The position numbers and the translations under genes are program-made. Shown here in pieces: positions 5,436 through 44,671 of a stretch of DNA of 46,293 nt. The notes under the pieces are model-generated. The model saw nothing but the letters and a program-made list of their open reading frames with translations, did no database searches and was not told where the DNA came from. Every line of letters starts with the position of its first letter. The first letter of the stretch is position 1. Origin of the DNA: a virus (Duplodnaviria > Caudoviricetes); IMG/VR virus record IMGVR_UViG_3300020042_009326, positions 1 through 46,293 of that record; one strand, 5' to 3'.

Positions 5436-5653
5436 CAGGAGACCCTCCAGAGCCGCCAGCCTTCGCCGTAGCGCCTGCAGGTGAACCTGACCCCTGGGTG
5501 ACGGCGCGCGTGCATGTAGGCGGCGCTACGCAGGTTCTTGATCCAGTCCTTGTCCAGGATCAGGAAACTGTCCCCAACCGCCATCCGAATAAAGGGATAG
5601 CTGGTCCGGGAGTCCGCGTCGGGAGGCATTGGGATGTTTTTTTCGATATTCAT
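5435..5653 (-). CDS. conserved small phage protein
   Basis: IEKNIPMP, YPF..M.VGDSF and RLWRV pattern common in phages. Confidence 0.75.
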   Translation of the reverse strand: MNIEKNIPMPPDADSRTSYPFIRMAVGDSFLILDKDWIKNLRSAAYMHARRHPGVRFTCRRYGEGWRLWRVS

Positions 5654-5690
5654 GCATACAGTCTACAACAAATCCACGGGCAACACGACT

Positions 5691-5730
5691 ACAAGGGCCC
5701 AAAAGGGCCCAAAAGGGCCCAAAAGGGCCT
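5691..5730. repeat. 4 x 10-bp tandem repeat AAAAGGGCCC
   Basis: Read directly from the sequence; first and last copies each have one mismatch. Confidence 0.9.
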
Positions 5731-5749
5731 GGAAAGGTCAAATTCGAGG

Positions 5750-5965
5750 TTTTAGTTAGGAATAAATAGGGAAGAGTATGTTTTTTTTTTTTCAAAAAAG
5801 CATCGCGCGCGCATTTTATGTGAATTACATCCATTGACTATGTGTAATCTAACGTGTTCTCATAACCCATTGATTTCATTCAACTATTACACCATTACTT
5901 CTATTACGTCTAATTTCAAAAAAAAAAAAAAAATAATTTTACTTTTTCATTTTTCTTCTACTAAA
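5750..5965. other. AT-rich non-coding region (candidate origin or packaging site)
   Basis: T12 at 5781, A16 at 5918 and repeated ATTAC in a GC-rich genome; no credible ORF; function is inference. Confidence 0.45.
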
Positions 5966-20467: not shown

Positions 20468-21159
20468 TCCCCTGGTCAACCCCGTATGTGTACGAAAAGC
20501 TTGAGCGAATTGACACGTCCAGCGGACGTGTATACAAACTCGCCGAAAACGTACATGTCCCGTCCGTGACCACTGTGCTCGATCGCACCAAGAACAAGGC
20601 TGCACTTGAGGCGTGGGCCCTTCGGATCGGCCAGGCGGAGGCGGATCGGAAAAAGGACGAGGCGGGGTACATCGGCACGTGGATGCACAACACGCTGGAA
20701 TGCATCATCAGCGGCGATGCGATGAAATTCGGCACTGATTGGTTGGCCATGAAGGGGCATGAAATGGCCTTTACCCTGGCCAACCGGTACTTTGATTCGA
20801 TCTCCGCGGTCCACGGTTCGGAGGTGGGGCTGTACTACCAAAACCGCTACGCCGGCACGACTGACCTGGTGGCCACGTACCGCGGCAAGCTGGCCATCAT
20901 CGACTTCAAACAATCGGTTAGGCCCAAGCGCCACGAGTACATCACCGACTACTTTCACCAGTTGGCTGCCTATGCGGTGGCGCATGACTGGCGGCACGGC
21001 ACCGCCATTGACTACGCCGCGGTGCTGATTTCAGTGCAGGATGGGACGACCCAGGAGTTCACCACCACCGGCCGAGAATTTCAAGAATTCAAGGCGCAGT
21101 GGATGGCCCGGCTCACTGCCTCGGAGGCTGCTGCGCCTGTGCCCCCGCCATTTGGCTGA
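20455..21159 (+). CDS. PD-(D/E)XK exonuclease
   Basis: PSVTTVL, GTWMH, YAGTTDL, IIDFK and QLAAY motifs. Confidence 0.9.
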   Translation: MAHLIPWSTPYVYEKLERIDTSSGRVYKLAENVHVPSVTTVLDRTKNKAALEAWALRIGQAEADRKKDEAGYIGTWMHNTLECIISGDAMKFGTDWLAMKGHEMAFTLANRYFDSISAVHGSEVGLYYQNRYAGTTDLVATYRGKLAIIDFKQSVRPKRHEYITDYFHQLAAYAVAHDWRHGTAIDYAAVLISVQDGTTQEFTTTGREFQEFKAQWMARLTASEAAAPVPPPFG

Positions 21160-24100
21160 CCGTGTCAAACGGGAAAAGCGATTGGAACATGGCTCGGGCG
21201 TTGGCGTTGGTTGGAGCACCGCTGCTGCCTTGACCAGGAGGCTTCGGCGCGGTGTCCGTGAGCCCTGGTACACCCCGCGTGCTGGGGGCTGTTGGTAGCT
21301 GGCGCAGCTGACGTGCTGCCGCGCCTTCGGGGGTGAAGGGCGACGTCTGAGGCGGCTTTTCCTCTTGCGCATTCAGGTAATTCAAGGCCGGGGTAACGGC
21401 GCTCTTGCCTACTGAGACGCCCATGGAGCCTAAAAATTTAATCACGCCGTTGGCGATGTCAATTTTCTCTTTCTCAGTGCGGCCCTTGGCAAGGAGCAAG
21501 GCCATTGCTTCGGGGTCTTTTATGGCGTTTTCAAAAACCGCCCGCACCGTGGCATTGGGCAGTGCATCAAAGATTTGCCGCACAGCTTTGGAGCCGGCAG
21601 AAGCTGCAATCAAGCTGCCCGGGCCACCAGGTGCGGCGGCTGTACCGATCTTTGCGCCAATGATGCGCAGGCCCAGCTCAGTGACGGCGTCAGCGCCTTG
21701 GATTAAGTTTTCAACGGGCAGATTGTTCTTGATGGACGTCTCAATGCGCGCCATGGGGACAAGGAGCTTCTTGAAGTTTGACAGCTCTTGCAGCGTCAGC
21801 ATGCCGTTGGCACGCATGATGTTGGCAATAGACGGCTGGTTGCGAGAGATCGGATCAAACAGCGCCGCCGCGTAGGCGTCGACGCTGAACGTCGTGCCGA
21901 CGTTAGGGCTGTTGCCCCCGGCCTTCGTGTAGGCGTAGTCGTACAGGGAGGATTTAAATCCTTCCACCGCATCGGGGCCGCTCTTCTTGGCCAGATCGGC
22001 AAGCTCACGAATGTCCCTGACAGGGAACCGCCCGGTCAGGCTGTCTGCAATCACTTTGGAGGGACTTTCAGCGGTCAGCAACTTGGCAAACGCACGCTGG
22101 CTGTCTGCAGTCCGGGACAGGACGCTGGTTTCCTTGGTCACTTGGGTGAGCAGGTTGGCTGCGTGGGCCGCGTCCCGCAGGTCACCCATGATGCCCATCT
22201 TTTCCAACAGCGGCGCGTTTTTTTGCGCAAACTTGGTGAGCTTTTCAAAATTCAGCTTTTGCACAAAAGACCCCGGTTCACTGCCTGGAACAACCGTTAC
22301 GGCTTCCGCAGCGGCCAGACGCAGAATCCGGTTGTGCGCATCGCGAATGGAGGCAACATTGCCTGTTGCGGCAACAGCCAGAGGCTTTAATTCCAAGGCT
22401 CGGGGGCTGTCAAACCCAAACTGCGCTACGGCGTCCCGATACTGCGTGCGCAGGAACGTAACAGAGTCCTCGATCTCCTTCATGCGCAGGGCTGTCTGAT
22501 CTGCGCTGCCGCTAAAGGCGTTTTGGACCAGTGTTTCCACGGGGATTCTGTCCATTCCGGTTGGAGTCACTGCAGTCAGCTGCCCGGCATAGGTCCGCGT
22601 AAAGGTGTCATTTAAAGCACGGGAAAACTCACGCGCCTGGTCGTACATCGGGTCCTTGAGCGTGTCCAAGTCCCGCATCATGCCGTCGGCCAAGCTGCTG
22701 TAAAAGTCCGCGTTGCTGCGTTGGCCAGGGGTGGCGGCAGCGTCCCGCGCCATCTTGAGCAGGGCGGACCGATAGCTCACCAGGTCCTGTACAGGCTGCT
22801 CTCTTATCCGTGGTGCAAAGCTCCCAGGAACTTTTCCGGTGTTCAAATAATCGTCGGTTAGTTTGCCCTCTCGAAACCGCTTTACCGCGTCTTCGCTCAC
22901 GCCAAACGACTCCATAATATTGCGCACTTGTGGCGGAATATTGTCAAACAACACCGGCCCCATTTCGGAAGCTCTTGCAAGAAAAGAATCAGCTGTTGCC
23001 GTGGGCGTGAGTTTAGGCGCGTTGATTACCGGTTGGTTGTATGTTGTGTAAACGGGCTTGTCCCGAAATCGGTCCCAGCCCGATGCAACCTTTGTTAGGA
23101 CGGTAGATTTAACGGGCCTGGTCATGGGCTCCAACGCTGCAATCCAAATTTGAGACTCGACATCCCGCCCTTCTGCCAGCGCTCTCACCGTCTCGTCTTT
23201 GACAATCCTCCCAATTTCTTGGCGGGCTTCAGGGGTGTCTTTGCTGATCTTGGCAATCTTGCGCGCAGCGTCAGCATTGGCCAAATCCAAGCGTGTCTGG
23301 AGGCCGTTGACAAATCGGTCGTAGCGCAATTTGCTGGCGACTTTCAAGCCTTCAGGACCTGTTTTTCCAAGCGCCTCAATGAGGGCTTGATATGCCAGCA
23401 TGGCCGTATCGCCCTGCGTTTTAATTTCCCCTCCAAACTCTGCGCGATGAGTGGCGAGCGACCTTTCCAGTTCCATTAAAGCCGGGCTTCCGGTCTTCTG
23501 CCCAGAAGTGGGCGTGGGCACTGTCCCAGGCAGCTGTTGGCGCAGGGCCTTGATCAGTGCTTCAGGGTCCTCGCCGTGTTTGGTAAGAATATCAAACAGG
23601 AGGTTGGCGGCCTTTTTCTCTGTAGAGGCGCTACGCCCAGAGTAGGCTGCTTTAGCTGCCTCTAATGCCGACTTACTGGCGTCGACGCCAAGCGTAAACA
23701 GCTTGCCCACAGGGGCCACGCCCGCTGCCAACTCAGCAGCAAGGCGGACGCCTTCTTGGCCTGGGCTATAAGCCTCCGCAGCGCCTCCAGCAATCCCTGT
23801 TGTCGCAGCAGTAACGGCCTCAGCGCCCATAAACACCTTGGGATTGCGACGAGCAACCTCTCCCATGGTAGACAGGTATGTGGCCACGCGACCCGCAGTG
23901 GGGCCTGCTATTGGCAGACCAAAGGTAAAAGGTGCCGTTAAAAGGGCTGAGCCGAAGGTGGTGCCGCCTTCAAAGTAAGGCTTTAGGCGCGGGTCGTCTT
24001 CTCCGGGGATTATTCCCGAAGCGGACTGCCCTGCCTCGTAGCCCAAATAGCCGCCCAGCGCCGTGGTGGCAAGTGGGATGGCTCCAGCAAAAGGCCCGAT

Positions 24101-24424
24101 GAAAGGCGCTGCTGCAGCAGCCAAAGGCATGCCCACTCTAAATCCTGCCAACGCACCGCCCAAAACAGGCGGATCACGAAGGCCGCCCTTAACAGCGCCC
24201 TGAAAAGCAGAGGCCGCTAGGTCCTTTCCCGTGGGCTCAGGAGGCCCTCCTGTCGGGAGGTTTATGTCCAGGGAATTCTTTGTGGGAACAGACGCGGGCG
24301 GGGCTTTATTAAACCCTGCAAGGGCAGGCTGGGAAGCAGCTTCAATTTCCGCAGGAGTAGGCTCATTTTCCACAAACTCCCCTGTTGGGAGGTTTATGTC
24401 CAAGCTGTTTTTGGAAGTTGCCAT
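21113..24424 (-). CDS. large internal virion / ejection protein (1103 aa)
   Basis: Last and largest gene of the virion operon; Ala/Gly-rich hydrophobic segments; helical. Confidence 0.7.
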   Translation of the reverse strand: MATSKNSLDINLPTGEFVENEPTPAEIEAASQPALAGFNKAPPASVPTKNSLDINLPTGGPPEPTGKDLAASAFQGAVKGGLRDPPVLGGALAGFRVGMPLAAAAAPFIGPFAGAIPLATTALGGYLGYEAGQSASGIIPGEDDPRLKPYFEGGTTFGSALLTAPFTFGLPIAGPTAGRVATYLSTMGEVARRNPKVFMGAEAVTAATTGIAGGAAEAYSPGQEGVRLAAELAAGVAPVGKLFTLGVDASKSALEAAKAAYSGRSASTEKKAANLLFDILTKHGEDPEALIKALRQQLPGTVPTPTSGQKTGSPALMELERSLATHRAEFGGEIKTQGDTAMLAYQALIEALGKTGPEGLKVASKLRYDRFVNGLQTRLDLANADAARKIAKISKDTPEARQEIGRIVKDETVRALAEGRDVESQIWIAALEPMTRPVKSTVLTKVASGWDRFRDKPVYTTYNQPVINAPKLTPTATADSFLARASEMGPVLFDNIPPQVRNIMESFGVSEDAVKRFREGKLTDDYLNTGKVPGSFAPRIREQPVQDLVSYRSALLKMARDAAATPGQRSNADFYSSLADGMMRDLDTLKDPMYDQAREFSRALNDTFTRTYAGQLTAVTPTGMDRIPVETLVQNAFSGSADQTALRMKEIEDSVTFLRTQYRDAVAQFGFDSPRALELKPLAVAATGNVASIRDAHNRILRLAAAEAVTVVPGSEPGSFVQKLNFEKLTKFAQKNAPLLEKMGIMGDLRDAAHAANLLTQVTKETSVLSRTADSQRAFAKLLTAESPSKVIADSLTGRFPVRDIRELADLAKKSGPDAVEGFKSSLYDYAYTKAGGNSPNVGTTFSVDAYAAALFDPISRNQPSIANIMRANGMLTLQELSNFKKLLVPMARIETSIKNNLPVENLIQGADAVTELGLRIIGAKIGTAAAPGGPGSLIAASAGSKAVRQIFDALPNATVRAVFENAIKDPEAMALLLAKGRTEKEKIDIANGVIKFLGSMGVSVGKSAVTPALNYLNAQEEKPPQTSPFTPEGAAARQLRQLPTAPSTRGVPGLTDTAPKPPGQGSSGAPTNANARAMFQSLFPFDTVSQMAGAQAQQPPRQ

Positions 24425-26536
24425 TTACTTACCTTTAGCGGCTGGTTTTTTTTCACGGATTACTTTAAACCCCTTCGGGTCAAGGACAATGTATTGTCCA
24501 GGTGGCAGCTTTGCCCACCTATTGCGGTCTTCGTCTGAATTGTAGTCCGGAGCAATCGGCAAGAATGTGCGTTGTTGAATCCCCAGCATTTCACGCACTG
24601 CACTAATCTCTTCAAGTTTCTTAGCAGCATCATTACGAAACTGAATTCCTGTTTTTACATTGTTAAATATTCCGTAAGTTTTTTGTTCAATTTTTTCAAA
24701 CGAGTTATCTAGTGAAATAATTCTGTTTATAAACGCTGATTTGTTAGTAAAAAGTTCTGGTGATATGTCCAAGTCTTTTTTAATCATTACGCGCTCGCCT
24801 TCTGCAAAGCGGGGGTTTTCCTGTAGCACGTTAACAACGCGGTTAGACATATCCGTAATCATTGATGTGGCCTGTTGAAAATCAGAACGAATCTGGCCCG
24901 CTGCGTCCAACGGCACATTGCGTGCAACGCCTGCCACCAACACAGGCACAAAGCCCGTACCAAAGCCGGCCAAGTCAAAAAAAGTGCTTCTTGGTGCGGT
25001 ACTGGCTACTTGGTAAATTTCAGGACTACTGTCGTTAGGCGTCAGCCCTAAAGAGGGGGCGGCCCCTCCTGGTGCAGGGCGGCTTCCTGATGCGGCGGAC
25101 CCTCCAAAAGAAGTCGTGGTGCTTGGCTTGGGAGCATATTTTCCCAAGGCTTCCCGGACAAAATCTGGCAGTTCGTTGCGCTGTGTGCGAAGGGTCTTGA
25201 GGCCTGTTGCGGGGTCCACGTACTCCACCGTAGTGGGCTGCGTGTAGTCCGTGACGGCGGCCATGAAGGCGTTGCGCTGCTCGGGGTCCAACGAGCCCTC
25301 TTTGAACAGCGGGGCAAATTGAATGAGGGCGTTCAGGATGTCGCCTTTGCTGCCCGCGCCAAGAGGGCCTTTTTTAGGAGTACCAGCTGCTTTAGCGGTA
25401 GCTGCTGCTATTCGAGCTTTCCCTGCAACGTCGGCAGCGTCAACTTTTCCTTGGGCAGTGAGCACCTGATTCATCAGAGCGCCCTTGCGTTTTTGCAGCT
25501 CACTATTCTCAGCGGTGACCTGATCAATGTCCTTTTCGCCTTGTTGCAGCGCCAGCACTTTAAGCTGCCGGTCAATCTTCGCAATTTCGTCAATGCGCTT
25601 GCCCATGGCAGCGGGCAATGTTTGAGTAGCGCCCGCCAAACGCGAAAGGAAACTGCCCGTCAACGGACGTCCCGCGTCGTCTCTGTTTGCAGCAAAGCCA
25701 AAGGCCCGTTGTCCTAGATCAAACAACAGCTGCGCCTGCGATGCATCTTTGTCTGGCCCTAAAAGTTTGGTGTACTCAGGCAAGCGCGCCAACATGGCAG
25801 CCGACAAAGTAGGCGCTACAGTTGCTTGCCTGTTGAAAAGTTCCGTTGACGCTTTCCGGGCCGCTGCCACAAGGTCAGCCGGATACCGTGTCAAATCTTC
25901 AGCAGGAACGGCCTCGTCAACAGGGGTGACGCCGTTCTCGTCAGTCCCTACTTGAAAATTTTGTACATACCCGCCGCGTGCCATGCCCATGGGCGGAGGC
26001 ATCGGGGCACCACCGCCAGGAGGCGGTGGCGGCATTGGGGGCATACCGGGTGCACCTCCGCCAAGGCCGGCCATCAGCTCTGCAATACCGCCTTGCGCGG
26101 GAGGCGGGGGCATGCCCGCATCAGGAGGCATTGGGGGCATACCGGGAGGCGGCATGCCAGGAGCGCCGCCCATCATCGGGGGCTGTGGTCCTTGAGCCAT
26201 GGGCTGTGATTGGGGCAGCGCGCCAATCCCGCCACCGCCCTGCTGCGCAAGAATAGGCTGCAGCATCGCCAGCACCTGCTCAGGCGTCTCAGTAGCGGCC
26301 TGGTAGCCCACGAGGTCAGCCAGTTCGTCACGACGAGCGTCGATAGAGCGCATGTCGCCCCGCAAGTTGTTCATCAGGATTTCAGGAGAGTCAGGGCGAC
26401 GCTCCATCATCATTGCAGCGCTCTCTCCGCCTTCCTCGTCGTCCGCATCCTCATCTGCAACCATGGAATCCATGAATCCTTTCATGATCCCTATGTTCTC
26501 GACGTCGTCGTTTTCGCGCATCATTTTTCTGTTCAT
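24425..26536 (-). CDS. internal virion / ejection protein (703 aa)
   Basis: Position; Pro/Gly/Met-rich linker; MARGG motif; coiled-coil region. Confidence 0.65.
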   Translation of the reverse strand: MNRKMMRENDDVENIGIMKGFMDSMVADEDADDEEGGESAAMMMERRPDSPEILMNNLRGDMRSIDARRDELADLVGYQAATETPEQVLAMLQPILAQQGGGGIGALPQSQPMAQGPQPPMMGGAPGMPPPGMPPMPPDAGMPPPPAQGGIAELMAGLGGGAPGMPPMPPPPPGGGAPMPPPMGMARGGYVQNFQVGTDENGVTPVDEAVPAEDLTRYPADLVAAARKASTELFNRQATVAPTLSAAMLARLPEYTKLLGPDKDASQAQLLFDLGQRAFGFAANRDDAGRPLTGSFLSRLAGATQTLPAAMGKRIDEIAKIDRQLKVLALQQGEKDIDQVTAENSELQKRKGALMNQVLTAQGKVDAADVAGKARIAAATAKAAGTPKKGPLGAGSKGDILNALIQFAPLFKEGSLDPEQRNAFMAAVTDYTQPTTVEYVDPATGLKTLRTQRNELPDFVREALGKYAPKPSTTTSFGGSAASGSRPAPGGAAPSLGLTPNDSSPEIYQVASTAPRSTFFDLAGFGTGFVPVLVAGVARNVPLDAAGQIRSDFQQATSMITDMSNRVVNVLQENPRFAEGERVMIKKDLDISPELFTNKSAFINRIISLDNSFEKIEQKTYGIFNNVKTGIQFRNDAAKKLEEISAVREMLGIQQRTFLPIAPDYNSDEDRNRWAKLPPGQYIVLDPKGFKVIREKKPAAKGK

Positions 26537-26548
26537 ATTGACCTCTTA

Positions 26549-28150
26549 TTAGAAAAGTCCTGACCTGCCGCCGGGGGAGCCTAAACCTGGACCTCCGCCG
26601 GGAGCATTCAGACCCAGACCTCCGCCGGGGGAGCCTAGACCCAAAACTGCGCCGGGCGTCTGCTGCTGGCCGAACGGGTTGGCCTGTTGTTGGCCGAATG
26701 GATTGGCCTGTTGTTGGCCGAATGGATTGGCCTGTTGTTGGCCGAATGGGTTCGCTTGTTGTAGGCCGTATGGACTCTGTTGCATTGCTTGTTGTTGGCC
26801 GAATTCGTTTGCCTGTTGTTGGCCGAACTGGTTGTACGTGGCAGCGGTTCGTTCGCCTAATGGACCATATGGATTGAACGTAGCAGCGGTCATGTAAGGA
26901 TTAAAGCCGGGCATCTGTTGCTGCGCCTGTTGTTGGCCGAAGTCGTTTGCTTGTTGTAGGCCGTATGGGTTCGCGGGCTGTGGGCCAAGCATGGCAACCC
27001 CAGGTGGCGGACGTTGGTTGGCCTGTTGCAGCGCCTGTTGCAGCGCCTGTTGTCCGCCGAACGGACTCAGTTGAGGTGGCGGACGTTGGCCGAACGCATC
27101 GAATTGAGGCTGGCCAAGCATGGCAACCCCAGGTGGCGGACGTTGGCCGAACGCATCGAATTGAGGTGGCGGACGTTGGCCGAACGCATCGAATTGAGGT
27201 GGCGGACGTTGGCCGAACGCATCGAATTGAGGTGGCGGACGTTGGCCAGGCATTGAGACAGCGGGTTGAGTTTGAGCCCTTATCACATCCTGCACTGTGT
27301 AATTTTGGGGATTAGGCGTTAGTCCAACAATAGCGTTTAGCATTTCTTTAGGCGATATACCGAACGACCCCTGTTGATTGCCCTGCATCTGTTGCATGGC
27401 CTGTTGGGTGCCCGGACCAAACGTGCCGAAGCCCCCAGGTAACGCAGTGGTGGGCATCTGCTGCAGCGCCTGTTGGCCAGGCGGACCAAACGTGCCGAAG
27501 CTCACAGGTAACGGAGTGGCAGGCATCTGTTGCATCGCCTGTTGGCCAGGCGGGGTCTGTTGATTGCGTTGCTGCGCTTCGAACTGCCGCATCATATCCT
27601 GCGTCTGTTGCATGGCCTGTTGGGTGCCCAGACTAAACGTGCCGAAGCTCCCAGGTAACGGAATGGTGGGCATCTGCTGCAGCGCCTGTTGTTGGCCGGC
27701 CTGTTGCAGCGCCTGTTGCCCAAACGCATTTCTTATGATCTGAGGGTTGCCGATCGTGCCGTCTCCACTGACTTGAGGCTGCCCGAACGCATTTCTTATG
27801 ATCTGAGGGTTGCCGATCGTGCCGTCTCCGCTGACTTGAGGCTGGCCAAACGTACCGACCTGAGGCTGGCCAAACGTACCGACCTGAGGTTGGCCAAACG
27901 TACCGACCTGAGGTTGGCCAAACGTACCGACCTGGGGCTGCCCGAACGTACCGGCTTGTTGCAGCGCCTGTTGGCTTAACGGGGCAACCCCTGGCTGACC
28001 GAACGTACCGACTTGAGGTTGGCCGAACGTACCGGCTTGAGGCTGGCCAGCCCCGGGCTGGCTAAATATGTTGGCTTGAGGTCGAACCGCCTGCATGATC
28101 CCCATGTTTTCAACATCGTCGTCGATTTCGCGTATTCTTTGTGTGCTCAT
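26549..28150 (-). CDS. FG-repeat, Q/P/G-rich low-complexity protein (533 aa)
   Basis: Open frame filling the gap exactly; GAGG RBS identical to the neighbour's; repeat units are multiples of 3. Confidence 0.8.
   Translation of the reverse strand: MSTQRIREIDDDVENMGIMQAVRPQANIFSQPGAGQPQAGTFGQPQVGTFGQPGVAPLSQQALQQAGTFGQPQVGTFGQPQVGTFGQPQVGTFGQPQVGTFGQPQVSGDGTIGNPQIIRNAFGQPQVSGDGTIGNPQIIRNAFGQQALQQAGQQQALQQMPTIPLPGSFGTFSLGTQQAMQQTQDMMRQFEAQQRNQQTPPGQQAMQQMPATPLPVSFGTFGPPGQQALQQMPTTALPGGFGTFGPGTQQAMQQMQGNQQGSFGISPKEMLNAIVGLTPNPQNYTVQDVIRAQTQPAVSMPGQRPPPQFDAFGQRPPPQFDAFGQRPPPQFDAFGQRPPPGVAMLGQPQFDAFGQRPPPQLSPFGGQQALQQALQQANQRPPPGVAMLGPQPANPYGLQQANDFGQQQAQQQMPGFNPYMTAATFNPYGPLGERTAATYNQFGQQQANEFGQQQAMQQSPYGLQQANPFGQQQANPFGQQQANPFGQQQANPFGQQQTPGAVLGLGSPGGGLGLNAPGGGPGLGSPGGRSGLF
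26660..26762. repeat. 24-bp coding tandem repeat (NPFGQQQA)
   Basis: About 4 copies read directly. Confidence 0.9.
27071..27247. repeat. 33-bp coding tandem repeat (FGQRPPPQFDA)
   Basis: About 3.5 contiguous perfect copies at 27131-27247 plus one at 27071. Confidence 0.9.
27723..27952. repeat. 63-bp x2 and 24-bp (GTFGQPQV) coding tandem repeats
   Basis: Read directly from the sequence. Confidence 0.9.
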
Positions 28151-28159
28151 ATTGACCTC

Positions 28160-30721
28160 TTAAAAAAGACCGGCTCTTTTTGCGCCGGCAGCAGTAGAAA
28201 CGGCACCTAGACCAATGCCCACGGCCTGTTGGAATGGGCTTGCCGATGGCTGGCTTGCCACGGCCGTGGACATCTGCGAAGACGGTGCGCCCTTGTAGAT
28301 GTCCGACAGAAAACCGGCCTGCTGATACGGGGCGTAGACTTTTTGCAGCTCGGTTGCGCGGCTGGCGTCCAGTCCTTGTTGGTTGAGGGCCTGTTGAGCC
28401 TGTCCGGTGTTGTACAGGAAGTTGATATCGCCCTGTTGAAGGGCCTGCGCTGTCTGGCCCAGAGCGCCCTGTTGCACGCCCAGTTGCCCCAGCTGCCCGG
28501 CCAACTGACCGAGGCCTTGAGCCTGCTGTTGGCCAATGCCAAACTGCTGCCCAGCCAACTGCCCAATGCCCTGGCCAAGGCCTTGGTACTGCTGAGCCTG
28601 CTGGCCATAGATGCCTGCTGCTGTTTGAGCGGCTTGGTTGCGCGCTTGGCCCTGCTGCAGCATCAGGTTGGCAATGTTTTGGTTGATTGACGCCTCTTGG
28701 CCCGCCAATGCGCCACCTTGAGACGCCAGGTTGCCGTACTGTTGCGCTGCTTGGCTGTAGATATTTGCTGCGCCCTGGCCCAACTGTGCTTGTTGCACGC
28801 CCAACTGACCAAGGCCTTGGCCAGCGGCAACTTGCTGCTGGGACAGGTTGCCGTAAAGGCCTGCTGCTGCTTGACCCAGCTGCGCCTGCTGCCCGGCCTG
28901 TGCACCCACCTGTTGGCCGATGTTGGCCAGCTGACCCGCACCGGCCTGTCCAAGCTGTGCGCGCTGTGCTTCCAGTGAGCCCAACTGCTGCCCTGCCTGC
29001 AGTCCCAATTGGCCTTGCTGAGCGGCAATTTGAGCAGCCTGCTGCCCCAATTGGCCCTGTGCCTGAGCTGACTGGCCGTACATGCTGCCGATGCCCTGCA
29101 TCAATTGAGACTGTTGGCCCGCTTGGCTGGCCTGAGTCTGCTGCAGCTGTGCCATTTGCATGGCAGTTTGAGCGTCAAATCCGGCTTCTTGAAACTGCTG
29201 CTGAGCAGCCTGCATGCCCAATTGACCCTGCTGGCCGGCCGTTTGGGTCTCTAACTGAGCGGCTTGAGCAAGCTGCTGTGCGGCATTTTGGCCAAGACCG
29301 GCCTGCTGTGCAGCAACAGAGGCCTGCTGTCCTCCTAGTTGACCAATGCCTTGCCCCGCCTGCATTTGTCGGCCCTGCTGCTGCTCAAAGGAGGCCATAG
29401 CGCCGGCCTGCGCTTGGGAGTAGCCCTGCGACAGGAGGTTGGCAATTGTGGAGGATTTTTGATCCATCAAATTGCGCTGCATCTCCGCGCGCTGAACACC
29501 TTCGCGCTCACCTCCAAACGCCCCTGACTTGACCGCCTGCGCTGCCAGGCCTTGGCCAGCGATCGCGCTCTGGCGATCCATTTGCTTCATCGTTTCATCG
29601 ATGACCTGCTGGCGGTAGGGGTCCATGAAGGCTTGGGCAGAAGCAGGGTTGTAGCCTTGAGTTGCGCCGGCAAGTTGGCCAATGCCCTGTTGAATCGTGC
29701 CCTGTGCTTGATTAAAGCCGGGCTGCGCGGCCGCAAGGCGCGACTGCTGCGCCGCCTCATAAGCACTGCCTACGCCTTGCCCAAAGCCCCCCTGCTGCGC
29801 CGCTTGACTGGCCATGCTGGAGGCCTGGGCAGCCGTTTGACCGGCACCCCGAAGGTTCTCGTTTGCTGCGCTGAAATCAGAGGGGCCTGCCTGCCGTGCT
29901 GCGTCCGTGGCCTGGCCAAGCGCCACGTTTTGGGCCACGAATCCAGGCTGACGGGCGGCCTGAGAGGCCATGCCAACAGCCTGCTGGCCTTGGCCGACCC
30001 CGTAGCCAATCATCCGATTGGCTTGGCCAAACTCAGGCTGTGCACCTTGCAACTGCCCGGCCGCCTGCCCCATCAGGGCTTGGGAACCACTGAAGTCCGC
30101 TGCACCTGAGCCCAGCGCCAACTGCTGGGCCTGCGTCAAGCCGCCAATGCCCTGTGCAATGGCTGCCGTTGCGGGTTGCAAGTTGGCCTGGCTGGACTGA
30201 GCCGCCATGTTCTGGGCCGTGGACAGCGATCCAAGGCCCGTGTTCAGGTCTGCTCGGGCGTTACCAAACTGCCCAGTGGTGTCGGATGCAGCTGCACGCT
30301 GCGCGGCCAGGTCAAGGTAGCCCAGGCCCTGGTTGATTTGCCCGATGCCAGAGGTGATGTTGGCCGTGGCCCCACCTGCTTGGCCCATGGCTTTTTGAGC
30401 GTCGGTGAACTGGTTGCGGGTGTCCGCCCCGCGCAGAATGTCGGCGGCCTCCCCGGTGGTGTCGTATGCGCCGGTCAACGCCTGATTGGCAGACGTCATG
30501 TAGGGATCAAAGGACCCTACCCCCGCGGCTTGGGCCGCATTTAAAGCGGTCTGTTGCGGAGCGGTAAAACCGGCTACCTGATAGCCAGGGAGTTGGCTAC
30601 TAAGTGTCGGGCGATTGACGTTGTACGCTAAGTCTTCTGCCTGTTTTAAAAGCCGAAGTTTATAGTCTTCAATTTCCTCCGCTTCGCGGATTATCTGAGT
30701 CTGAGTTGTGGTTTCTGCCAT
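28160..30721 (-). CDS. Q/G/A-rich DNA-transfer (pilot-like) ejection protein (853 aa)
   Basis: FMDPY.QQVID, GAFGG.REGV; approx. 11-residue QLGQLGQQQ repeats; small hydrophobic C-terminus. Confidence 0.7.
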   Translation of the reverse strand: MAETTTQTQIIREAEEIEDYKLRLLKQAEDLAYNVNRPTLSSQLPGYQVAGFTAPQQTALNAAQAAGVGSFDPYMTSANQALTGAYDTTGEAADILRGADTRNQFTDAQKAMGQAGGATANITSGIGQINQGLGYLDLAAQRAAASDTTGQFGNARADLNTGLGSLSTAQNMAAQSSQANLQPATAAIAQGIGGLTQAQQLALGSGAADFSGSQALMGQAAGQLQGAQPEFGQANRMIGYGVGQGQQAVGMASQAARQPGFVAQNVALGQATDAARQAGPSDFSAANENLRGAGQTAAQASSMASQAAQQGGFGQGVGSAYEAAQQSRLAAAQPGFNQAQGTIQQGIGQLAGATQGYNPASAQAFMDPYRQQVIDETMKQMDRQSAIAGQGLAAQAVKSGAFGGEREGVQRAEMQRNLMDQKSSTIANLLSQGYSQAQAGAMASFEQQQGRQMQAGQGIGQLGGQQASVAAQQAGLGQNAAQQLAQAAQLETQTAGQQGQLGMQAAQQQFQEAGFDAQTAMQMAQLQQTQASQAGQQSQLMQGIGSMYGQSAQAQGQLGQQAAQIAAQQGQLGLQAGQQLGSLEAQRAQLGQAGAGQLANIGQQVGAQAGQQAQLGQAAAGLYGNLSQQQVAAGQGLGQLGVQQAQLGQGAANIYSQAAQQYGNLASQGGALAGQEASINQNIANLMLQQGQARNQAAQTAAGIYGQQAQQYQGLGQGIGQLAGQQFGIGQQQAQGLGQLAGQLGQLGVQQGALGQTAQALQQGDINFLYNTGQAQQALNQQGLDASRATELQKVYAPYQQAGFLSDIYKGAPSSQMSTAVASQPSASPFQQAVGIGLGAVSTAAGAKRAGLF

Positions 30722-33505
30722 TTAGTTCCCCTTAACGGCTCCGCCTTCGAGCTTCTTCATTAACTTGTACATGCGAGCCGCGCCCTTGCGACGACTGCCC
30801 CCTCCGGCGTTGCGTACCGCTTTGGCGGTAAAGACAAACTCGCCGTCCGACAACATGGCTGGGATGTCGTCCGAAGTCCCTGTGCCAGGGCCGTTGATAG
30901 GGCCGTCGCGGCGAGGGAATTGCGTCATCTTGGTTGGACCGCCTTTGGCAAAGGCTTGACTGCCACCGCCAAAGCCAGCATCTCCACCCCCATAGCCATC
31001 AGCGTTTGCACCTGGTGCATCAGAGCCACCGCCATAGCCTTGGTAACCAAGTGACACTGATGAACCTGGGTCAACCTTTCCTGTTAAGGCAGCTAAATCT
31101 GCTGCCGTAAAAGTTCCATCTCTATATGCCGCACCCACTGGTATTCCCGAGGCCAGAAAACCACCGACGCCCGTAAGCCCCACTCGATTGGCCTCTCCAG
31201 CTAGGTTACCAAGCATTCCATAGGCAGTTTGTCCAGTGCCTTTGTTGTCAGTCCCCGGTCCACGCGCATCACCCGCATTGCTCCCACCACCGCTTTGGTC
31301 AAGCGGTTTTACTTTCTCAGGCTCGCGTGCCCGATAAAGTACTCTCTTCTGTGATGGGTCAAACACATTTCCTTCTAAACCATAGCCGCCGCTCTCTAAA
31401 AAGTCTTGCCGTTCTTGAGCACGTCGCCTACGTTCTTCGTAACCAGCGTCGCCACCCTCATGAAACCGTCCTATGATGCCGCCATTGGCCATGCGACGGG
31501 GCTGACCGTCTGGGCCGTAAATCAGTGGGACGCCGTACAGGCCTGCGACGTTGTAGGGTTGCGCTACGCCGGCCGGACTCCGGGTTATGCCGGTTGGAGC
31601 CGCCGTACCGGGTGCCCCAACAGGGGCAGTGCTGTACGAGGCGGGCACGATTGGGTTATACGGTGCGTTAAGCACGGGTTTTTCCAGACCATAACCGCCC
31701 TTCTCCATAAATTCTCGCCGTTCTTTGGCACGCTGCCTAGATTCCATGTAGCGCGCTCTCTCCCCGGCTGTCATTTCGTCTATTTCGGCAGGACTGGAGT
31801 CCATGCCCCCAAAGGCTGCTATGGCTGCCGTCCCCGCCGCCGCCAGCGGACCGTATTTCTGGAAAATGCCTGCGTTTTCCATGCCGGGTCGGCTAGGGGA
31901 AAGGTACTCGTCGTACATGCCCTTAGCGCCCGTGACCATCTTGTCGAAAAAGCCGGTGGGTTGTGTACCTGGGAGCATGCCAAGGTTGTTGGCATCCAGC
32001 GCAGCTTGTTGTCCCGGAGAGGAGAAACTAGAGGAAAAAGGCGGCGGGGTATTGGAGTTGAGAAGCGGCTGCTCAATCCCCGCGCCAAGGTTGTTGGCAT
32101 CTAGCGCACCTTGTTGCCCCGCGTTGCCGCCGGTAGACACACCAGGACGCAGGTTGCCGCTATAAGGCAATTCGGGGGCCGGTTGACTTAGCAGTTCCGT
32201 AGCCGTTCCAGTTTGGCCAATTTGACCAATTGGGCCAGGGTCGGAGACGCGGAAATTTAATTTGGGATTATTTTTAATAAAACCTGCCATTTCTGCAGTG
32301 TTATCTCCCAAATAGACGTCAGCTGCTTTTGGGTCCGTGTAAGCACGCTTAAACATGTCAGTTCTCGTGGCGTAATCTGCCTCATTCAAGCCGCTAGCTG
32401 GTTTACCCATGCTGCCAAGCGCCTTCATGCCGCCTGCCGATACGCCCGATACAAGCCCCATCTTCAAGGCGTCTGCTGTGCTCATGCCCCCTAGTTTGCC
32501 GATGCCTGCGCCGATGATGCCCGTGGCCAGGCCCGTGTTCAACGCGCCGCCAACTGCGCCAATTCCCGTGCCGGCTGCGCCAGGAAGGTATTGGCCAACA
32601 GTTGCAATGGGGTTTGCGCCCATGATCGTGCCGCCCCCGCCGATGTAGCCCATGGCACCAGAGATCAGGGCCTCTTTCATTGAGCCCCCGCCTGCAAGAG
32701 CGACAGTTCCGGAGGCCAAAGCAGCAGTTCCTCCACTGCCCAGCGCCGCGCCAATGGCAGTTGGTCCGAGGACCGTGGCCAACGCAATGGTGCCCAAGAT
32801 GCGCCCAACAGGGCTTTTGAGCACGTCTTTGGCGATGTTAACGACCCCTTTGACGGCGTCCCCAATGGCGTCAAAAACTCCACCAAGAAGGCCGCCTTTA
32901 AACTCCGGCAAGCCTGTGATTGGGTTGATCGTGCCAGAGCCGCCACGGCTCTTGAGCATTGCAGCTTCTTTAGGGTTAATGTGAGCCAGGATGCTGTCGC
33001 CGCCACGGCCTTTGGAGGCAAGGTACTGCCCGACATCTGCTAGGCCACCACTGGCCATGTTCATCGGCTGGAGGCCTTGAACAACGGGAGACAGGTCCAT
33101 GGGCTCTTGAGCGCCGGCGGCCTGCATCTGCTGCATCTCGTTCAAGACCGCCAGCATCGCGCCAATAAATTCTGGGTCGTACTCAGGGGGCATGTCCCCC
33201 TCATCGAGGACCTTTGCTTCAACCATCTTTTGGAGCAGGTTTTTGTAGTCGCCAGGATGCTGGCTGACGTACTCAAAAACCTGAATGAGGGCGTCAAGCT
33301 GCTGGGGCGTCAGCCGAAGGTCGCCGATATTTTGTCGCAGAGCCTCCTTGAGAGCGGCTTGTTCCCCAGGATTGACCATCCCAAGGGCGGTTTGCGCGGC
33401 GTCATACGATTCAGCGCTCGTCACGGTCGGCTGCGGCTGCCTTTGCGGCTGCTCGCCCTGCATGCCCATGCCCTGAGGCAGGGCCATGATTCCTTCATTT
33501 GCCAT
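30722..33505 (-). CDS. internal virion / ejection protein with GPG-D-GEF domain
   Basis: GRGGDSILAHINP.EA...GGSGTINP.TGLPEF; Gly/Ala hydrophobic stretch; C-terminal GPGTGTSDDIPAMLSDGEFVFTA. Confidence 0.75.
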   Translation of the reverse strand: MANEGIMALPQGMGMQGEQPQRQPQPTVTSAESYDAAQTALGMVNPGEQAALKEALRQNIGDLRLTPQQLDALIQVFEYVSQHPGDYKNLLQKMVEAKVLDEGDMPPEYDPEFIGAMLAVLNEMQQMQAAGAQEPMDLSPVVQGLQPMNMASGGLADVGQYLASKGRGGDSILAHINPKEAAMLKSRGGSGTINPITGLPEFKGGLLGGVFDAIGDAVKGVVNIAKDVLKSPVGRILGTIALATVLGPTAIGAALGSGGTAALASGTVALAGGGSMKEALISGAMGYIGGGGTIMGANPIATVGQYLPGAAGTGIGAVGGALNTGLATGIIGAGIGKLGGMSTADALKMGLVSGVSAGGMKALGSMGKPASGLNEADYATRTDMFKRAYTDPKAADVYLGDNTAEMAGFIKNNPKLNFRVSDPGPIGQIGQTGTATELLSQPAPELPYSGNLRPGVSTGGNAGQQGALDANNLGAGIEQPLLNSNTPPPFSSSFSSPGQQAALDANNLGMLPGTQPTGFFDKMVTGAKGMYDEYLSPSRPGMENAGIFQKYGPLAAAGTAAIAAFGGMDSSPAEIDEMTAGERARYMESRQRAKERREFMEKGGYGLEKPVLNAPYNPIVPASYSTAPVGAPGTAAPTGITRSPAGVAQPYNVAGLYGVPLIYGPDGQPRRMANGGIIGRFHEGGDAGYEERRRRAQERQDFLESGGYGLEGNVFDPSQKRVLYRAREPEKVKPLDQSGGGSNAGDARGPGTDNKGTGQTAYGMLGNLAGEANRVGLTGVGGFLASGIPVGAAYRDGTFTAADLAALTGKVDPGSSVSLGYQGYGGGSDAPGANADGYGGGDAGFGGGSQAFAKGGPTKMTQFPRRDGPINGPGTGTSDDIPAMLSDGEFVFTAKAVRNAGGGSRRKGAARMYKLMKKLEGGAVKGN

Positions 33506-33509
33506 GATA

Positions 33510-33564
33510 GTCCTTTCCAATTTTTGCCAGTAGCCGCAAGGGCCGCGCGCCGGGAAAGGACGCG
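33510..33564 (-). promoter_or_regulatory. leader with anti-Shine-Dalgarno pairing
   Basis: GUCCUUUCC is perfectly complementary to the RBS GGAAAGGAC. Confidence 0.55.
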
Positions 33565-33930: not shown

Positions 33931-34106
33931 TACGTGCCTAAAAACCAGGTTTGCGCCTGGTCCTTGTCCTCTGTAGTAACGGGCGTGTAGGTGCTGTTAA
34001 GCTGAAAGATGACCTGCTCAAGCGAACGCACAAGCTGATTGAACTGTTGCGGGTCGTAGGCCAACGGCGACGCGTTGGGCAGGCGGACGTTGTTGATCTT
34101 GCTCAT
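33930..34106 (-). CDS. small conserved virion protein (58 aa, not in ORF track)
   Basis: MSKINNVRLPNASPLAYDPQQFNQLVRSLEQVIFQLN...WFLGT; overlaps at both ends. Confidence 0.75.
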   Translation of the reverse strand: MSKINNVRLPNASPLAYDPQQFNQLVRSLEQVIFQLNSTYTPVTTEDKDQAQTWFLGT

Positions 34107-35953
34107 CTTATTCCGTCCGGCTGAACATCAATCCGCATTGTGCCAAATCGCCACCATCCGTTTAACTCATCGCTTTCAATTCGCAATTGAATTTGTCTGC
34201 CGCGCGCACGTGTATTAACAAACTCCGTGCTCGGCGAGATGGGATAGGGGTCCAAGGAGCTTGGCGTTGCAGTGGCCTGTGGATAGGCGCGCAAGAATAG
34301 TCGCACTACGATCTCCCCCACTTGAAGCTTAAAGTCAGGGATAAACTTTTGCATAAGCAGCATTTGGTCCCCGTCACCAATATCAAAATAGCCTGAGTAC
34401 ACGAAGGCGTCAATTGCCTCCCCGTTAGCATCCACCCCGTCTTCTTGGTTGTAAAGATGGCTGCGTCCGGCTGTAAGTCCGTAGATTGTGGAAATAGTAG
34501 CCGCGTTGTCTAAAGGATCGTACTCGGTAGCCAGGGGTTTTTCAAACGTGCCGACGTCGGCCCAGGCCGTGCGGGACATAGAGCCGATAGACCAGACACC
34601 TTCCATATAGTTGTAAGTCACAAAGCGGTTTATATAGTCGCTGCTTAGTGACGGGTAGAACCATGTCACCTCATTAAACTGAGTGTTGATGCCCACGTTA
34701 ACAGCAGTCGCCTGTGCAAGATTAAAGTCTTCAAATACGTAGTCCTGCACCGTACAAGGAAGTTTTTTCACCGTACCGTCAAACATAAAGAACGCGTCCT
34801 TGCCCATCCAATACGATATACCGTTAACGTCAGCCGCCGCATGAGGACTAACAGTGCCGCAGTTGGCTCCTAGCTGCTGAAAGCCAAAGGTATACGGAGG
34901 CCCGAGGTATTGCTGGCCATGCAGTGCGGTGTCCGTCCAAAGCAGAATTTGGCCACGGGAGCGCAGTGCCGCGATAATCTCGTTGCCGTCCGTTAAACGC
35001 TGGCCGCCAGCTGTGTTGGTTGCCGTCACCACAAAGTCGCCAATGTCCTCTTGATCTGAAAACCGCACAAACATGGGGTCTTGAGTGGTTGGGGTGCCCA
35101 CCGTTTTCTCAGTGCCAAAACACACCAGGTGCCTGTCTGGAGTGGAGATCAGCGCATACTTGCTTTTGGTTGGAGCGCCGGCAATAGCCGTGGCCCGCAC
35201 ACTAAGGCCCGTGCTTGGCAACCATTCATAGACGCCGCCATTTACCAATTGAAGGACAAGGTCTTCTCCATAGGAGTCAAACTGCCAGACCCGTGCAAAC
35301 AGGGAAAGCCCCGCGGAAGCAGGACGGGGCGTCCCCCAAGTGCTCAAGCCCCAGGTGCCAGTGCCCCAGCCAAAGTCCACAAAACTGACATCGCTGCCAA
35401 CGTTGAGCTGATAGGTTGCGGTTGCCGTTCCAACCGTTGCTGCCGTGGAGGTTGCTGCAACCGGGGAAATGATGGTGTAGGCGTTGCTGCTTGTGATAAA
35501 TTGAATCTCAAATTCATTGTTTAAAGAAGCATTGGGTATGCCACCCGGGTTGCCTGTGGTAGCGCTTAAAGTAACAAAGTCGCCTACGATTGCGCCGTGA
35601 GAAGCGTCGTTAACAGTCACCGTGGTGCTGCCATTGACAGTGGTAAAGGTAACAGCGCCGGTGTCTCGGATGGGGGTAATATCGGCCCATGTGCCTCCGT
35701 AAAACACATAGACCTTGCGGTTGGTTCCTACAACAGCATAGGGCTCGCCGTTTAGCCCATTCCAAGTAAAAATGTCGCTGACTGCTCCTACAAAATTAAC
35801 AGCAGTTTCCCCGAAGTCCGTCCACCCACCTAGTTTTTCCGGCAGGCCGTAGCGAAACCGGACGTAGTCGCTGTCCACCCAGCCGCCTTCCGCACCGTAC
35901 TCGGTGTTCTGCTTGTCAACGCCTGGCTTGAAGGGGAGTCGTAACAATGCCAT
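34103..35953 (-). CDS. tail tubular B / P22 gp10-like stabilisation protein
   Basis: FKPG, W.D.D.VRFR.G.PEK.GGW, RFSDQE, EVTWFYP and RARGRQ; beta-propeller-like. Confidence 0.8.
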   Translation of the reverse strand: MALLRLPFKPGVDKQNTEYGAEGGWVDSDYVRFRYGLPEKLGGWTDFGETAVNFVGAVSDIFTWNGLNGEPYAVVGTNRKVYVFYGGTWADITPIRDTGAVTFTTVNGSTTVTVNDASHGAIVGDFVTLSATTGNPGGIPNASLNNEFEIQFITSSNAYTIISPVAATSTAATVGTATATYQLNVGSDVSFVDFGWGTGTWGLSTWGTPRPASAGLSLFARVWQFDSYGEDLVLQLVNGGVYEWLPSTGLSVRATAIAGAPTKSKYALISTPDRHLVCFGTEKTVGTPTTQDPMFVRFSDQEDIGDFVVTATNTAGGQRLTDGNEIIAALRSRGQILLWTDTALHGQQYLGPPYTFGFQQLGANCGTVSPHAAADVNGISYWMGKDAFFMFDGTVKKLPCTVQDYVFEDFNLAQATAVNVGINTQFNEVTWFYPSLSSDYINRFVTYNYMEGVWSIGSMSRTAWADVGTFEKPLATEYDPLDNAATISTIYGLTAGRSHLYNQEDGVDANGEAIDAFVYSGYFDIGDGDQMLLMQKFIPDFKLQVGEIVVRLFLRAYPQATATPSSLDPYPISPSTEFVNTRARGRQIQLRIESDELNGWWRFGTMRIDVQPDGIR

Positions 35954-43337: not shown

Positions 43338-44003
43338 TCATACCCCCAAGTCCGGTACAAACTGCACGCTGGCAGTGTCTCGGTCTTCCAAAGCAGCGCG
43401 TTGAAAGTCCTCCTCGTAGATCGTCTTGAGCGCTGCAACCCGGTCGGCGGCAAACTTGAGGGCCAGGTAGTAAGCCAGACCCGAAGCCAGGCAAGGCAAG
43501 AACCGGAAGTTTACGTCGGCGGTGTTGGTGTAGTCGCCGGCGTCTTGGATGCGGCGGATGCGGTAGTAGACAAAGGTGTAGTTTTGGTCTGCTGCCGGGT
43601 AGAAATACACCTTTGGGACGTTGGTGCGCTCTACGTAAAACTGAGCAGGGCGAGCCTGCGTGGTCTTGTCAGGGACGTTAAGGTAGTCTTCACGGCTGAT
43701 GCGCTCAATGTAGACGTCCGTGTTGATGCCTTGGTTGTTTTGGCGAATAACCGCCTCCAGCACATTGACCACGTCAGTCGGCAACGAAATGCTGCTGGTC
43801 CCCTGCACCAAGGCAAAAGTGGCCTGCTCAATGGTCCACAGGTTTAACCCACGATTGGCCCAGTCGAGAAACAGCAGGTTGAGCGAGCGGCGTGCCGAAG
43901 AAAGCTGATAGCCGCTTGTGGGCCGCATTCCGCAACGCTCAAATGCCTCTTCGACCAGGTCATCAATCGACAGATCAAATGTGGTGGTGTTTGAGGTTGT
44001 CAT
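43338..44003 (-). CDS. head-tail connector-type virion protein
   Basis: EEAFERCG, ARRSLNL...WANRG.NLW and RFLPCL..GLAYYL motifs. Confidence 0.8.
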   Translation of the reverse strand: MTTSNTTTFDLSIDDLVEEAFERCGMRPTSGYQLSSARRSLNLLFLDWANRGLNLWTIEQATFALVQGTSSISLPTDVVNVLEAVIRQNNQGINTDVYIERISREDYLNVPDKTTQARPAQFYVERTNVPKVYFYPAADQNYTFVYYRIRRIQDAGDYTNTADVNFRFLPCLASGLAYYLALKFAADRVAALKTIYEEDFQRAALEDRDTASVQFVPDLGV

Positions 44004-44671
44004 TTGCTGCTGTACAGGTTGTTAAAGGTCTGCTGTGCGTCCATGTACGAATCATCTTGCTCTGCGCAGTGTGTCCACTGGCTGGGCCTAAAGTCTGGAG
44101 CACCCTCCCCTGTTTGCCAAAACGCAGGGCTGGTGACCCTGACTCGGTTGTTTGGCAACGCCACGATGTTGCCCGTCCACTTGCCCGCATCTGTCAACAT
44201 CAAAACATGACTTTGTTTGTGTTGCGCAGGACAGTCTGCTACCTCGCTCTCCGCATAGTCTACGGTAAACAGGTACCTGCCGGTGTGAAATTCCCCGTCA
44301 ATCTTGCACATCCAGGGGCTAGGACTGGTCCGCGCAAACTTCACTACCGTGTGGTGGTGAGATGGGCAATCCCATGGCTGCGCCAAATGCGTAGGCATAC
44401 GTTCTGGCCACTCCTCCAAAGGAATGTCCCCCACCAGCGCGGTGATGGGCATGCGCGCCCACATCGCTCCCCCGTGCACGTTCTCAGACCCGTCTACATG
44501 GCTTTCACACCCCGTGAACACAAGCTGAAAACTCAAGCAACGGTCCGGCATGACATTGACCGCAATGACGTTTGCGTGCAAATACTCGCCATGGTACTTC
44601 TGGTGCATGTGCGTGAACTCGCGTCTGACCCAGCATTTAAAGTACGGGATGTTGCTGATGAGATAGGACAT
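44000..44671 (-). CDS. conserved hypothetical protein (223 aa)
   Basis: NIP, GAMWAR.P, QPWDC, YLFTVD, HKQSH and PNNR motifs. Confidence 0.8.
   Translation of the reverse strand: MSYLISNIPYFKCWVRREFTHMHQKYHGEYLHANVIAVNVMPDRCLSFQLVFTGCESHVDGSENVHGGAMWARMPITALVGDIPLEEWPERMPTHLAQPWDCPSHHHTVVKFARTSPSPWMCKIDGEFHTGRYLFTVDYAESEVADCPAQHKQSHVLMLTDAGKWTGNIVALPNNRVRVTSPAFWQTGEGAPDFRPSQWTHCAEQDDSYMDAQQTFNNLYSSK

Follow-up and report, generated by a model that had tools for sequence, protein, structure and literature searches.

The window, by which we mean the whole stretch of 46,293 nucleotides analysed here (IMG/VR record IMGVR_UViG_3300020042_009326), carries a run of genes behind the tail hub gene g616 in the order g112, g932, g853, g533, g703 and g1103. 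The genes that matter here are:

34103..35953, minus strand: g616, tail hub/stabilisation-type virion protein (PHROG 3287, E 2e-85)
30722..33520, minus strand: g932, Gly-rich gene of the module, with an N-terminal NEGIM motif similar to that of g703
28160..30721, minus strand: g853, conserved Q/A/G-rich ejection (pilot-type) protein with a GLF end (profile match to HTVC023P gp81)
26549..28150, minus strand: g533, an optional gene for a low-complexity Q/P/G protein of 533 aa with 27 FG and predicted disorder
24425..26536, minus strand: g703, conserved helical protein, donor of the N-terminal motif (no fold match)
21113..24424, minus strand: g1103, large conserved protein (positional counterpart in DSL-LC04 annotated 'DNA transfer protein')

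The g616 protein is 62.5% identical to its counterpart in DSL-LC04, a metagenome-assembled lake phage, and 41% identical to those of HTVC023P and HTVC027P, which places the phage of the window as a freshwater relative of DSL-LC04 and HTVC023P. The stretch, whole or in part, is present in 20 of the 23 runs listed, and every one of these 20 comes from freshwater or a lake. A host hint from Synechococcaceae and Bifidobacterium bins was set aside, as the contigs concerned are of 8 kb, have empty slots and are probably mis-binned.

The placement of g533 in a DNA-ejection module, made in the initial annotation, holds by transitive homology. The g853 profile matches HTVC023P gp81 (probability 99%, E 3e-18), and both gp81 (E 2e-10) and the short DSL-LC04 homologue (E 7e-9) match PHROG 4287, 'DNA ejection protein'. 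Among relatives, g853 varies from 294 to 1405 aa. By its position, g703 is likely an ejection protein as well. A sequence search of solved structures with g853, g703 and g1103 gave no match, nor did a fold search with the g703 model, and the window core genes showed no homology to the Bruynoghevirus TL ejection proteins (probability 0.8% or less). The predicted complex of g853 residues 340-853 with g703 residues 1-100 scored 0.00 and is given no weight in either direction, and a promoter and terminator scan returned nothing specific at either end of g533.

Several other features of the window were recorded. The hydropathy of g853 has a period of 3.67 residues (power 17.6, versus 0.7-5.3 at six other periods), a periodicity like that of the phiX174 H tube with its 11/3 coiled coils (PMC7354561, table); g853 may be a conduit of variable length. 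An N-terminal [EN]-x-G-I-M motif is common to g932, g703 and g533, while M-A-x-G-G sites occur three times in g932 and once in g703; loading or cleavage signals are a possible explanation of these motifs. The C-terminal region of g1103 (window 21113-21180, minus strand) contains Q-S-L-F-P-F-D, in which L, F, P and D are invariant in 15/15 rows and which loosely resembles the LF tail described below. A g932 homologue at L027:5747-7887 is broken into two ORFs of 314 and 419 aa, by a frameshift or a sequencing error. Away from the module, a 223-aa protein containing 7 Cys and 14 His (window 44000-44671, minus strand) adjoins the tail adaptor genes and matches PHROG 3704, annotated ferredoxin (E 2e-29), and a perfect 10-nt tandem repeat (x3.7) lies at window 5693-5729, in the gap region near 5526-5834.

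The g533 protein consists of 21.6% Q, 15.2% G and 12.9% P, with 37 F, one K and no C, W or H. It contains 27 FG dipeptides, compared to 5.6 expected from its composition, and 35 charged residues (6.6%), 8 of them within the first 23 positions. This recount agrees with the composition first reported (533 aa, about 27 FG, one Lys, no Cys/Trp/His, little charge outside the N-terminus), and the motifs GTFGQPQV, DAFGQRPPP and NPFGQQQA are all present as described. With Q+N at 25.9% and such low charge, the chain has a prion-like composition; its Pro content speaks against amyloid. Cys, Trp and His together amount to 0-0.54 per 100 aa in the four neighbours of g533, versus 0.95-13 across the other 16 proteins tested from the window. 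Since this depletion is common to all four neighbours, it marks the module and not g533 itself.

Most of the repetitive DNA of the window lies in this gene (11 of the 14 tandem-repeat rows), with unit sizes of 24, 27, 33, 63 and 69 nt. Of the 27 FGs, 15 derive from three repeat units (7+4+4), and the FGs are therefore not independent of each other. The repeat arrays and the two ends of g533 are arranged as follows:

28091..28150, minus strand: codons 1-20; residues 10-20 copy the g703 N-terminal D-x-E-N-x-G-I-M
27833..27953, minus strand: 24-nt tandem array x5.0 (GTFGQPQV units), with a further 2.3 copies at 27993-28048
27717..27852, minus strand: 63-nt tandem array x2.2
27385..27553, minus strand: 69-nt tandem array x2.4
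27056..27247, minus strand: 33-nt tandem array x6.1 (DAFGQRPPP units)
26660..26774, minus strand: 24-nt tandem array x4.8 (NPFGQQQA units)
26562..26656, minus strand: 27-nt array x3.5, the Gly-rich linker preceding the tail
26549..26566, minus strand: C-terminal R-S-G-L-F and stop, a tail found also in g853 and in unrelated slot proteins

Four orthologues of g533 were found (L094, L172, L173 and L174), all of them open frames with differing repeat numbers. Three are cut by contig ends; the complete one, in L173 (385 aa), keeps both termini, and its middle is reshuffled as compared to g533. Between g533 and L094, residues 1-301 (212 aligned codons) gave a dS of 0.46 and a dN of 0.055 (dN/dS 0.12), and dN/dS rose to 0.29 over all 281 aligned codons, which include a poorly aligned tail. 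For residues 64-147 of g533, dN/dS was 0.03. The neighbouring genes gave 0.035-0.30, and g533 falls inside this range. The internal repeat lags of g533 are all multiples of 3 (664 windows versus 0). We also compared repeat copies within the gene, choosing the pairs by DNA, since pairs chosen by protein would be circular; in the window these pairs, which are not independent of each other, gave a pS of 0.26 versus a pN of 0.07. The synonymous excess was similar in L094, weaker in L173 and L172, and absent from L174. Its substitution pattern identifies g533 as a real coding gene under purifying selection.

We rejected an assembly artefact because parts of the gene recur in independent runs with 99-100% identity, because these runs span both junctions, and because the indels listed inside g533, all but 6 rows, add up to whole codons (9 nt; net 135 nt). 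Frame-disrupting indels in reads or relatives had been named in the initial annotation as evidence that would count against the gene; the four orthologues are open, and the indels listed are in frame. An RNA run (X16) contains short contigs inside g533 and across both junctions, and contigs of this kind cannot show transcription. Queries with g533 found no relative among viral contigs, in a search insensitive enough to miss L094, none in PHROGs or among ESM Atlas features, and none among 5.8 billion proteins, where residues 1-150 returned two eukaryotic repeat look-alikes. A profile search of 1.84 billion representatives yielded 142 matches, nearly all on a repeat array; the 13 inspected were all repeat look-alikes, and the N-terminal motif of g533 occurred in 0 of the 144 proteins retained from this search.

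The AlphaFold2 model of g533, built from a 5-row alignment, has a pLDDT of 40 and a pTM of 0.17, with four short helices and 470 of the 533 residues below pLDDT 50. The ESM Atlas model has a pLDDT of 0.36. The simple version of FoldIndex gave a borderline value of 0.037, the lowest among 21 window proteins. The protein is thus predicted to be disordered, as had been supposed at the outset, with the caveat that the shallow alignment alone may lower the confidence. The model does not show a helical, channel-forming or membrane-spanning structure, and the highest 19-residue hydropathy window is weak (0.65).

We examined the slot between g853 and g703 in 164 loci, retained after dropping the unrelated pattern matches L047, L050 and L053; these loci are the best-scoring relatives and not a random sample. 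A g853 homologue is present in 162 of them, which reduce to 105 haplotypes defined by the last 400 nt. The slot is empty in 96 haplotypes, while 5 hold a complete gene, 3 a partial gene (one being L094) and 1 a remnant. Judged by this distribution, the g533 gene is optional and dispensable across lineages, and a slot gene is not required and conserved across the clade in the manner of a podovirus ejection protein. On a quick g853 tree (106 rows), the filled state implies at least 6 changes, versus 8-10 in 100 shuffles, a count that does not distinguish gains from losses. L098 and L103 share both flanks at 98% identity, the difference between them being the slot gene. The remnant (L035:7136-7234) consists of 32 frameshifted codons with the GLF end surviving in another frame, and reflects either decay or assembly collapse.

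Other genes occupy the same slot, in the tenant groups L036, L046 and L051; L095, L096 and L103; and L107. A second slot follows g1103, with the tenant groups L012 and L070, L213 and L227:

L012:15356-17071, L070:8706-10025, L213:11105-12418 and L227:11039-12241: tenants of the second slot, low-complexity Q/P/G proteins between 400 and 571 aa long with a G-[LIV]-F end

Three of these four second-slot proteins have an N-terminal Q/A/R-rich stretch. The tenant groups do not align with g533, nor clearly with each other; the weak scores between some groups (z up to 7) would be compatible with a remote common origin. The tenants are rich in Q, P and G, carry 4.7-12.8% charge, contain no more than 2 Cys/Trp/His and have 0-11 FG. 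Within the survey span of about 5-10 kb around the ejection cluster, all of the low-complexity instances lie inside the cluster or at its end. The second slot can also hold an ordinary-looking 156-aa gene, found in 3 of 70 haplotypes (L001:15589-16059, L022:14716-15186 and L025:15590-16060).

The complete Q-rich low-complexity proteins in the relatives all end in G-[LIV]-F (10/10), and account for 10 of the 11 such ends among 1461 distinct non-g853 ORFs of at least 150 aa in the loci; queries that did not demand the tail also led to every one of the 10. A short terminal motif is common to otherwise unrelated, putative cargo, as expected of accessory internal proteins of the T4 type. Of the 105 haplotypes, 75 have a g853 protein with an exact GLF end, and in 101 [LI]F falls within the last four residues of g853. 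L174 and 3 of the 4 runs examined carry a variant with 9 nt inserted at the g853 stop (window 28162), in which g853 ends GLFG. Beyond its last three residues, the C-terminus of g533 reached a score against the g853 C-terminal profile that 8 of 200 shuffles equalled, and its derivation as a decayed g853 C-terminal helix was rejected as not significant.

The tail is partly tied to the DNA preceding the g703 ribosome-binding site, as two observations indicate: the terminal Leu codon of g853 is never CTG or TTG (0/75), versus 49% of the internal Leu codons, and the g853 ending is exactly GLF in 73 of the 96 haplotypes with an empty slot versus 2 of the 9 with a filled one. In addition, all six complete slot-1 sequences examined (g533, L173, L036, L046, L051 and the L096/L103 family) end in CTT-TTY-TAA before the g703 start. 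On the other hand, the four tenants after g1103 face a convergent gene and have no ribosome-binding site to conserve. They keep G-[LIV]-F with other codons (CTG, ATT and GTC), which points to selection on the peptide too. In a second family the last 20 residues are conserved but for one amino-acid change, alongside several synonymous ones. Taken from these sequences, the tail likely tags the slot proteins as passengers of the injection apparatus.

The two ends of g533 suggest where the gene came from. They lie within two copies of one junction:

28091..28171, minus strand: junction copy 1, with the g853 end (GLF, stop), a ribosome-binding site and the g533 start
26477..26560, minus strand: junction copy 2, with the g533 end (GLF, stop), a ribosome-binding site and the g703 start

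The copies align with a score of 115, versus a maximum of 58 in 500 shuffles. Residues 10-20 of g533 match the g703 N-terminal profile with 25.1 bits (0/200 shuffles as high), and the D-x-E-N-x-G-I-M motif is invariant in the g703 alignment. This g703-like motif is present only in the g533 lineage and in no other tenant group. We propose that a tandem duplication of the g853/g703 junction would have created a gene with the g703 start and the g853 end, and that in-frame repeat expansion would have supplied its middle. Recombination between the junction copies could then remove the gene cleanly, restoring the empty state as in L098 and L037. On this account, g533 would be a well-documented case of a new gene arising from a duplicated gene junction and repeat expansion.

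Our main reading, to which we assign a probability of roughly 45%, is that g533 is an accessory disordered passenger, loaded and ejected by means of its terminal tags, and serving as a filler or decoy. It would be packed into the head with the core ejection proteins, the tail (together with the N-terminal motif in g533) routing it to the site that loads or handles them. Its low-charge body, free of Cys, Trp and His, would thread through the phage tail unfolded, and after ejection would most likely be a filler or decoy, weakly sticky, that keeps host envelope quality control away from the core pilot protein. Composition and ends would then matter, with F, Y, M or L as interchangeable sticky residues. 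The passenger reading draws support from the open frame, the predicted disorder, the module-wide depletion of Cys, Trp and His, the optional slot and the common tail; the filler or decoy role is what we infer beyond these. A precedent exists in T4 IpIII, whose first ten N-terminal residues are a loading tag (PMC8402733, section 4.1). However, P22 gp7 and gp20 load via their N-terminal parts and not their C-termini (PMC8402733), which speaks against a C-terminal tag. We also count against the passenger reading that the marine g853 homologues are without the tail, that the tail is partly explained at the DNA level, and that the N-terminal motif is confined to one lineage. The mismatch between the g533 C-terminus and the g853 profile, the uneven synonymous excess and the weak hydropathy weigh in the same direction.

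We think it unlikely that g533 is a by-product of the junction duplication with little function, selection preserving an open frame and a harmless product so that ribosomes get to g703, and GLF being the translation of the U-rich start region of g703. The duplicated junction itself fits this explanation, as do the uniform CTT-TTY-TAA end of slot 1, the Leu codon bias, the rarity of exact GLF in g853 of filled haplotypes, the frameshifted L035 remnant and the frequent loss of the gene. Nevertheless, the dN/dS values of 0.03 and 0.12, at a dS of about 0.5, are more than an open frame needs, and 260-571 extra codons would be a costly spacer. The peptide-level conservation in the second family and in the genes after g1103, which have no downstream start, is likewise at odds with a mere by-product.

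It is similarly doubtful that g533 stays in the cell and is never packaged, acting there as a condensate scaffold that gathers ejection proteins or as a decoy for proteases or defence sensors of the host. The same evidence for disorder and selection would serve this explanation, the common end motifs would work equally well as bait, and the 156-aa gene after g1103 illustrates that non-virion accessory genes enter the operon too. However, the Cys/Trp/His-free make-up of g533 matches its ejected neighbours and not the cytoplasmic proteins of the window, and within the span surveyed every low-complexity instance belongs to the ejection cluster.

A bolder extension of the passenger reading, which we regard as quite improbable, is that the G-[LIV]-F tag loads arbitrary disordered polymers into heads, that prion-like proteins are repeatedly bred at ejection-gene junctions by duplication and repeat expansion, and that they are injected with the DNA to condense into a protective gel within the conduit or the host envelope, with stickers (FG, YG or Met) arising convergently. 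If such proteins do condense after ejection, theirs would be a material state new for ejection machines, within the literature searched.

The FG dipeptides had been read in the initial annotation as the hallmark of cohesive FG-nucleoporins and as a hint of a possible condensate- or gel-forming protein, with the likeness convergent and not homologous. A Pfam search of g533 at E up to 0.1 returned only Prion_octapep, below its cut-off, and no nucleoporin or anchor domain; together with the profile matches, which were repeat look-alikes, this gives no sign of nucleoporin homology, as that annotation had anticipated. FxFG is a canonical FG-nucleoporin motif, and g533 contains 0 FxFG, 0 GLFG and 1 [SP]xFG, with 20 of its 27 FGs being FGQ. 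Like the FG-nucleoporins, it has many FG dipeptides in a charge-depleted chain, predicted here to be disordered, and residues 42-143 hold 9 FG in 102 aa, a local density close to that of Nup98. In Nup98 the density is about 8 per 100 residues and GLFG dominates (PMC9918544); g533 as a whole has 5.1 per 100 aa, with Pro-rich spacers. The expectation that FG would be conserved at this locus was borne out in part: the four orthologues carry 16-19 FG in 292-385 aa (4.2-5.5 per 100 aa in 4/4), even where the repeats differ, whereas the other slot occupants have 0-4.0 per 100 aa. Phe is substituted about as often as other residues in the orthologues (5/49 versus 71/738), and the claim that FG is the functional hallmark was not upheld. 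The nucleoporin-like FG pattern appears to be mostly a trait of the g533 lineage. To our knowledge, bacteria have no counterpart of the transport receptors. That cohesive FG motifs form a selective gel, acting as a plug or filter of the ejection conduit or as a DNA shield, is accordingly the least probable of the explanations, for all its agreement with the FG number, low charge and predicted disorder. The dense stretch at residues 42-143 and the FG density kept by the orthologues leave it some chance in the g533 lineage. It is weakened as Phe is not specially conserved, longer spacers sharply lower cohesion in tests of Nup98 (PMC9918544), and 96 of 105 relatives work without a slot gene.

Prion-like stretches of Q/N type have been predicted in phage proteins, some of which serve attachment and penetration (Tetz and Tetz 2017, PMC5694896). 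In the parts of that report cited here, the domains lie in tail, baseplate, head and lysin proteins, with no stand-alone low-complexity genes swapping within an ejection operon under a common tail. More widely, the slot, its tenant proteins and the tail were not found described in the open literature searched; annotation tables in supplements could mention such genes.

Another close comparison is with the HTVC023P-type pelagiphages and DSL-LC04 (proposed 'Dishuiviridae', PMC10611076). Both share the tail hub and g853 with the window by homology, and DSL-LC04 additionally shares g703. In DSL-LC04, a g853 of only 294 aa stands directly against g703 with a 9-nt gap. Unlike the phage of the window, the marine isolates have neither a slot gene nor the GLF tail. 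This marine kin group has been reported as the most abundant known (bioRxiv 2019.12.14.876532).

The location of g533, inside the ejection cluster behind the tail hub, is that of a podovirus ejection protein. The same cluster is formed by gp7/gp20/gp16 in P22, gp14/gp15/gp16 in T7 and gp56/gp54/gp53 in Pa223. Section 10 of the Pa223 report gives the ejection order as a small membrane-type protein, a tunnel-type protein and a protein of about 1000 aa (bioRxiv 2025.06.11.659172), with which the gene order in the window agrees, and an extra small gene of unknown function, gp55, lies there between gp56 and gp54. Podovirus ejection proteins are needed for infectivity and largely helical, in contrast to g533, which is optional, predicted disordered and built of repeats.

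T4 internal proteins are small basic proteins, whereas the cargo at the g533-type slots is an uncharged low-complexity chain of 260-571 aa. In T4, IpI-III are non-essential for assembly and carry a short terminal loading tag (PMC8402733, section 4.1), as our model would have it for g533. The T4 tag is N-terminal and experimentally shown; that of the g533 type would be C-terminal and is deduced from sequence. According to the same section, the choice of packed and ejected proteins in podoviruses is still poorly understood. As several unrelated putative cargo sequences have only their composition and a three-residue tail in common, a loading or targeting signal is directly testable with short fusions. 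Being neither a nucleoporin nor a core ejection protein, g533 is best filed as a putative accessory internal protein.
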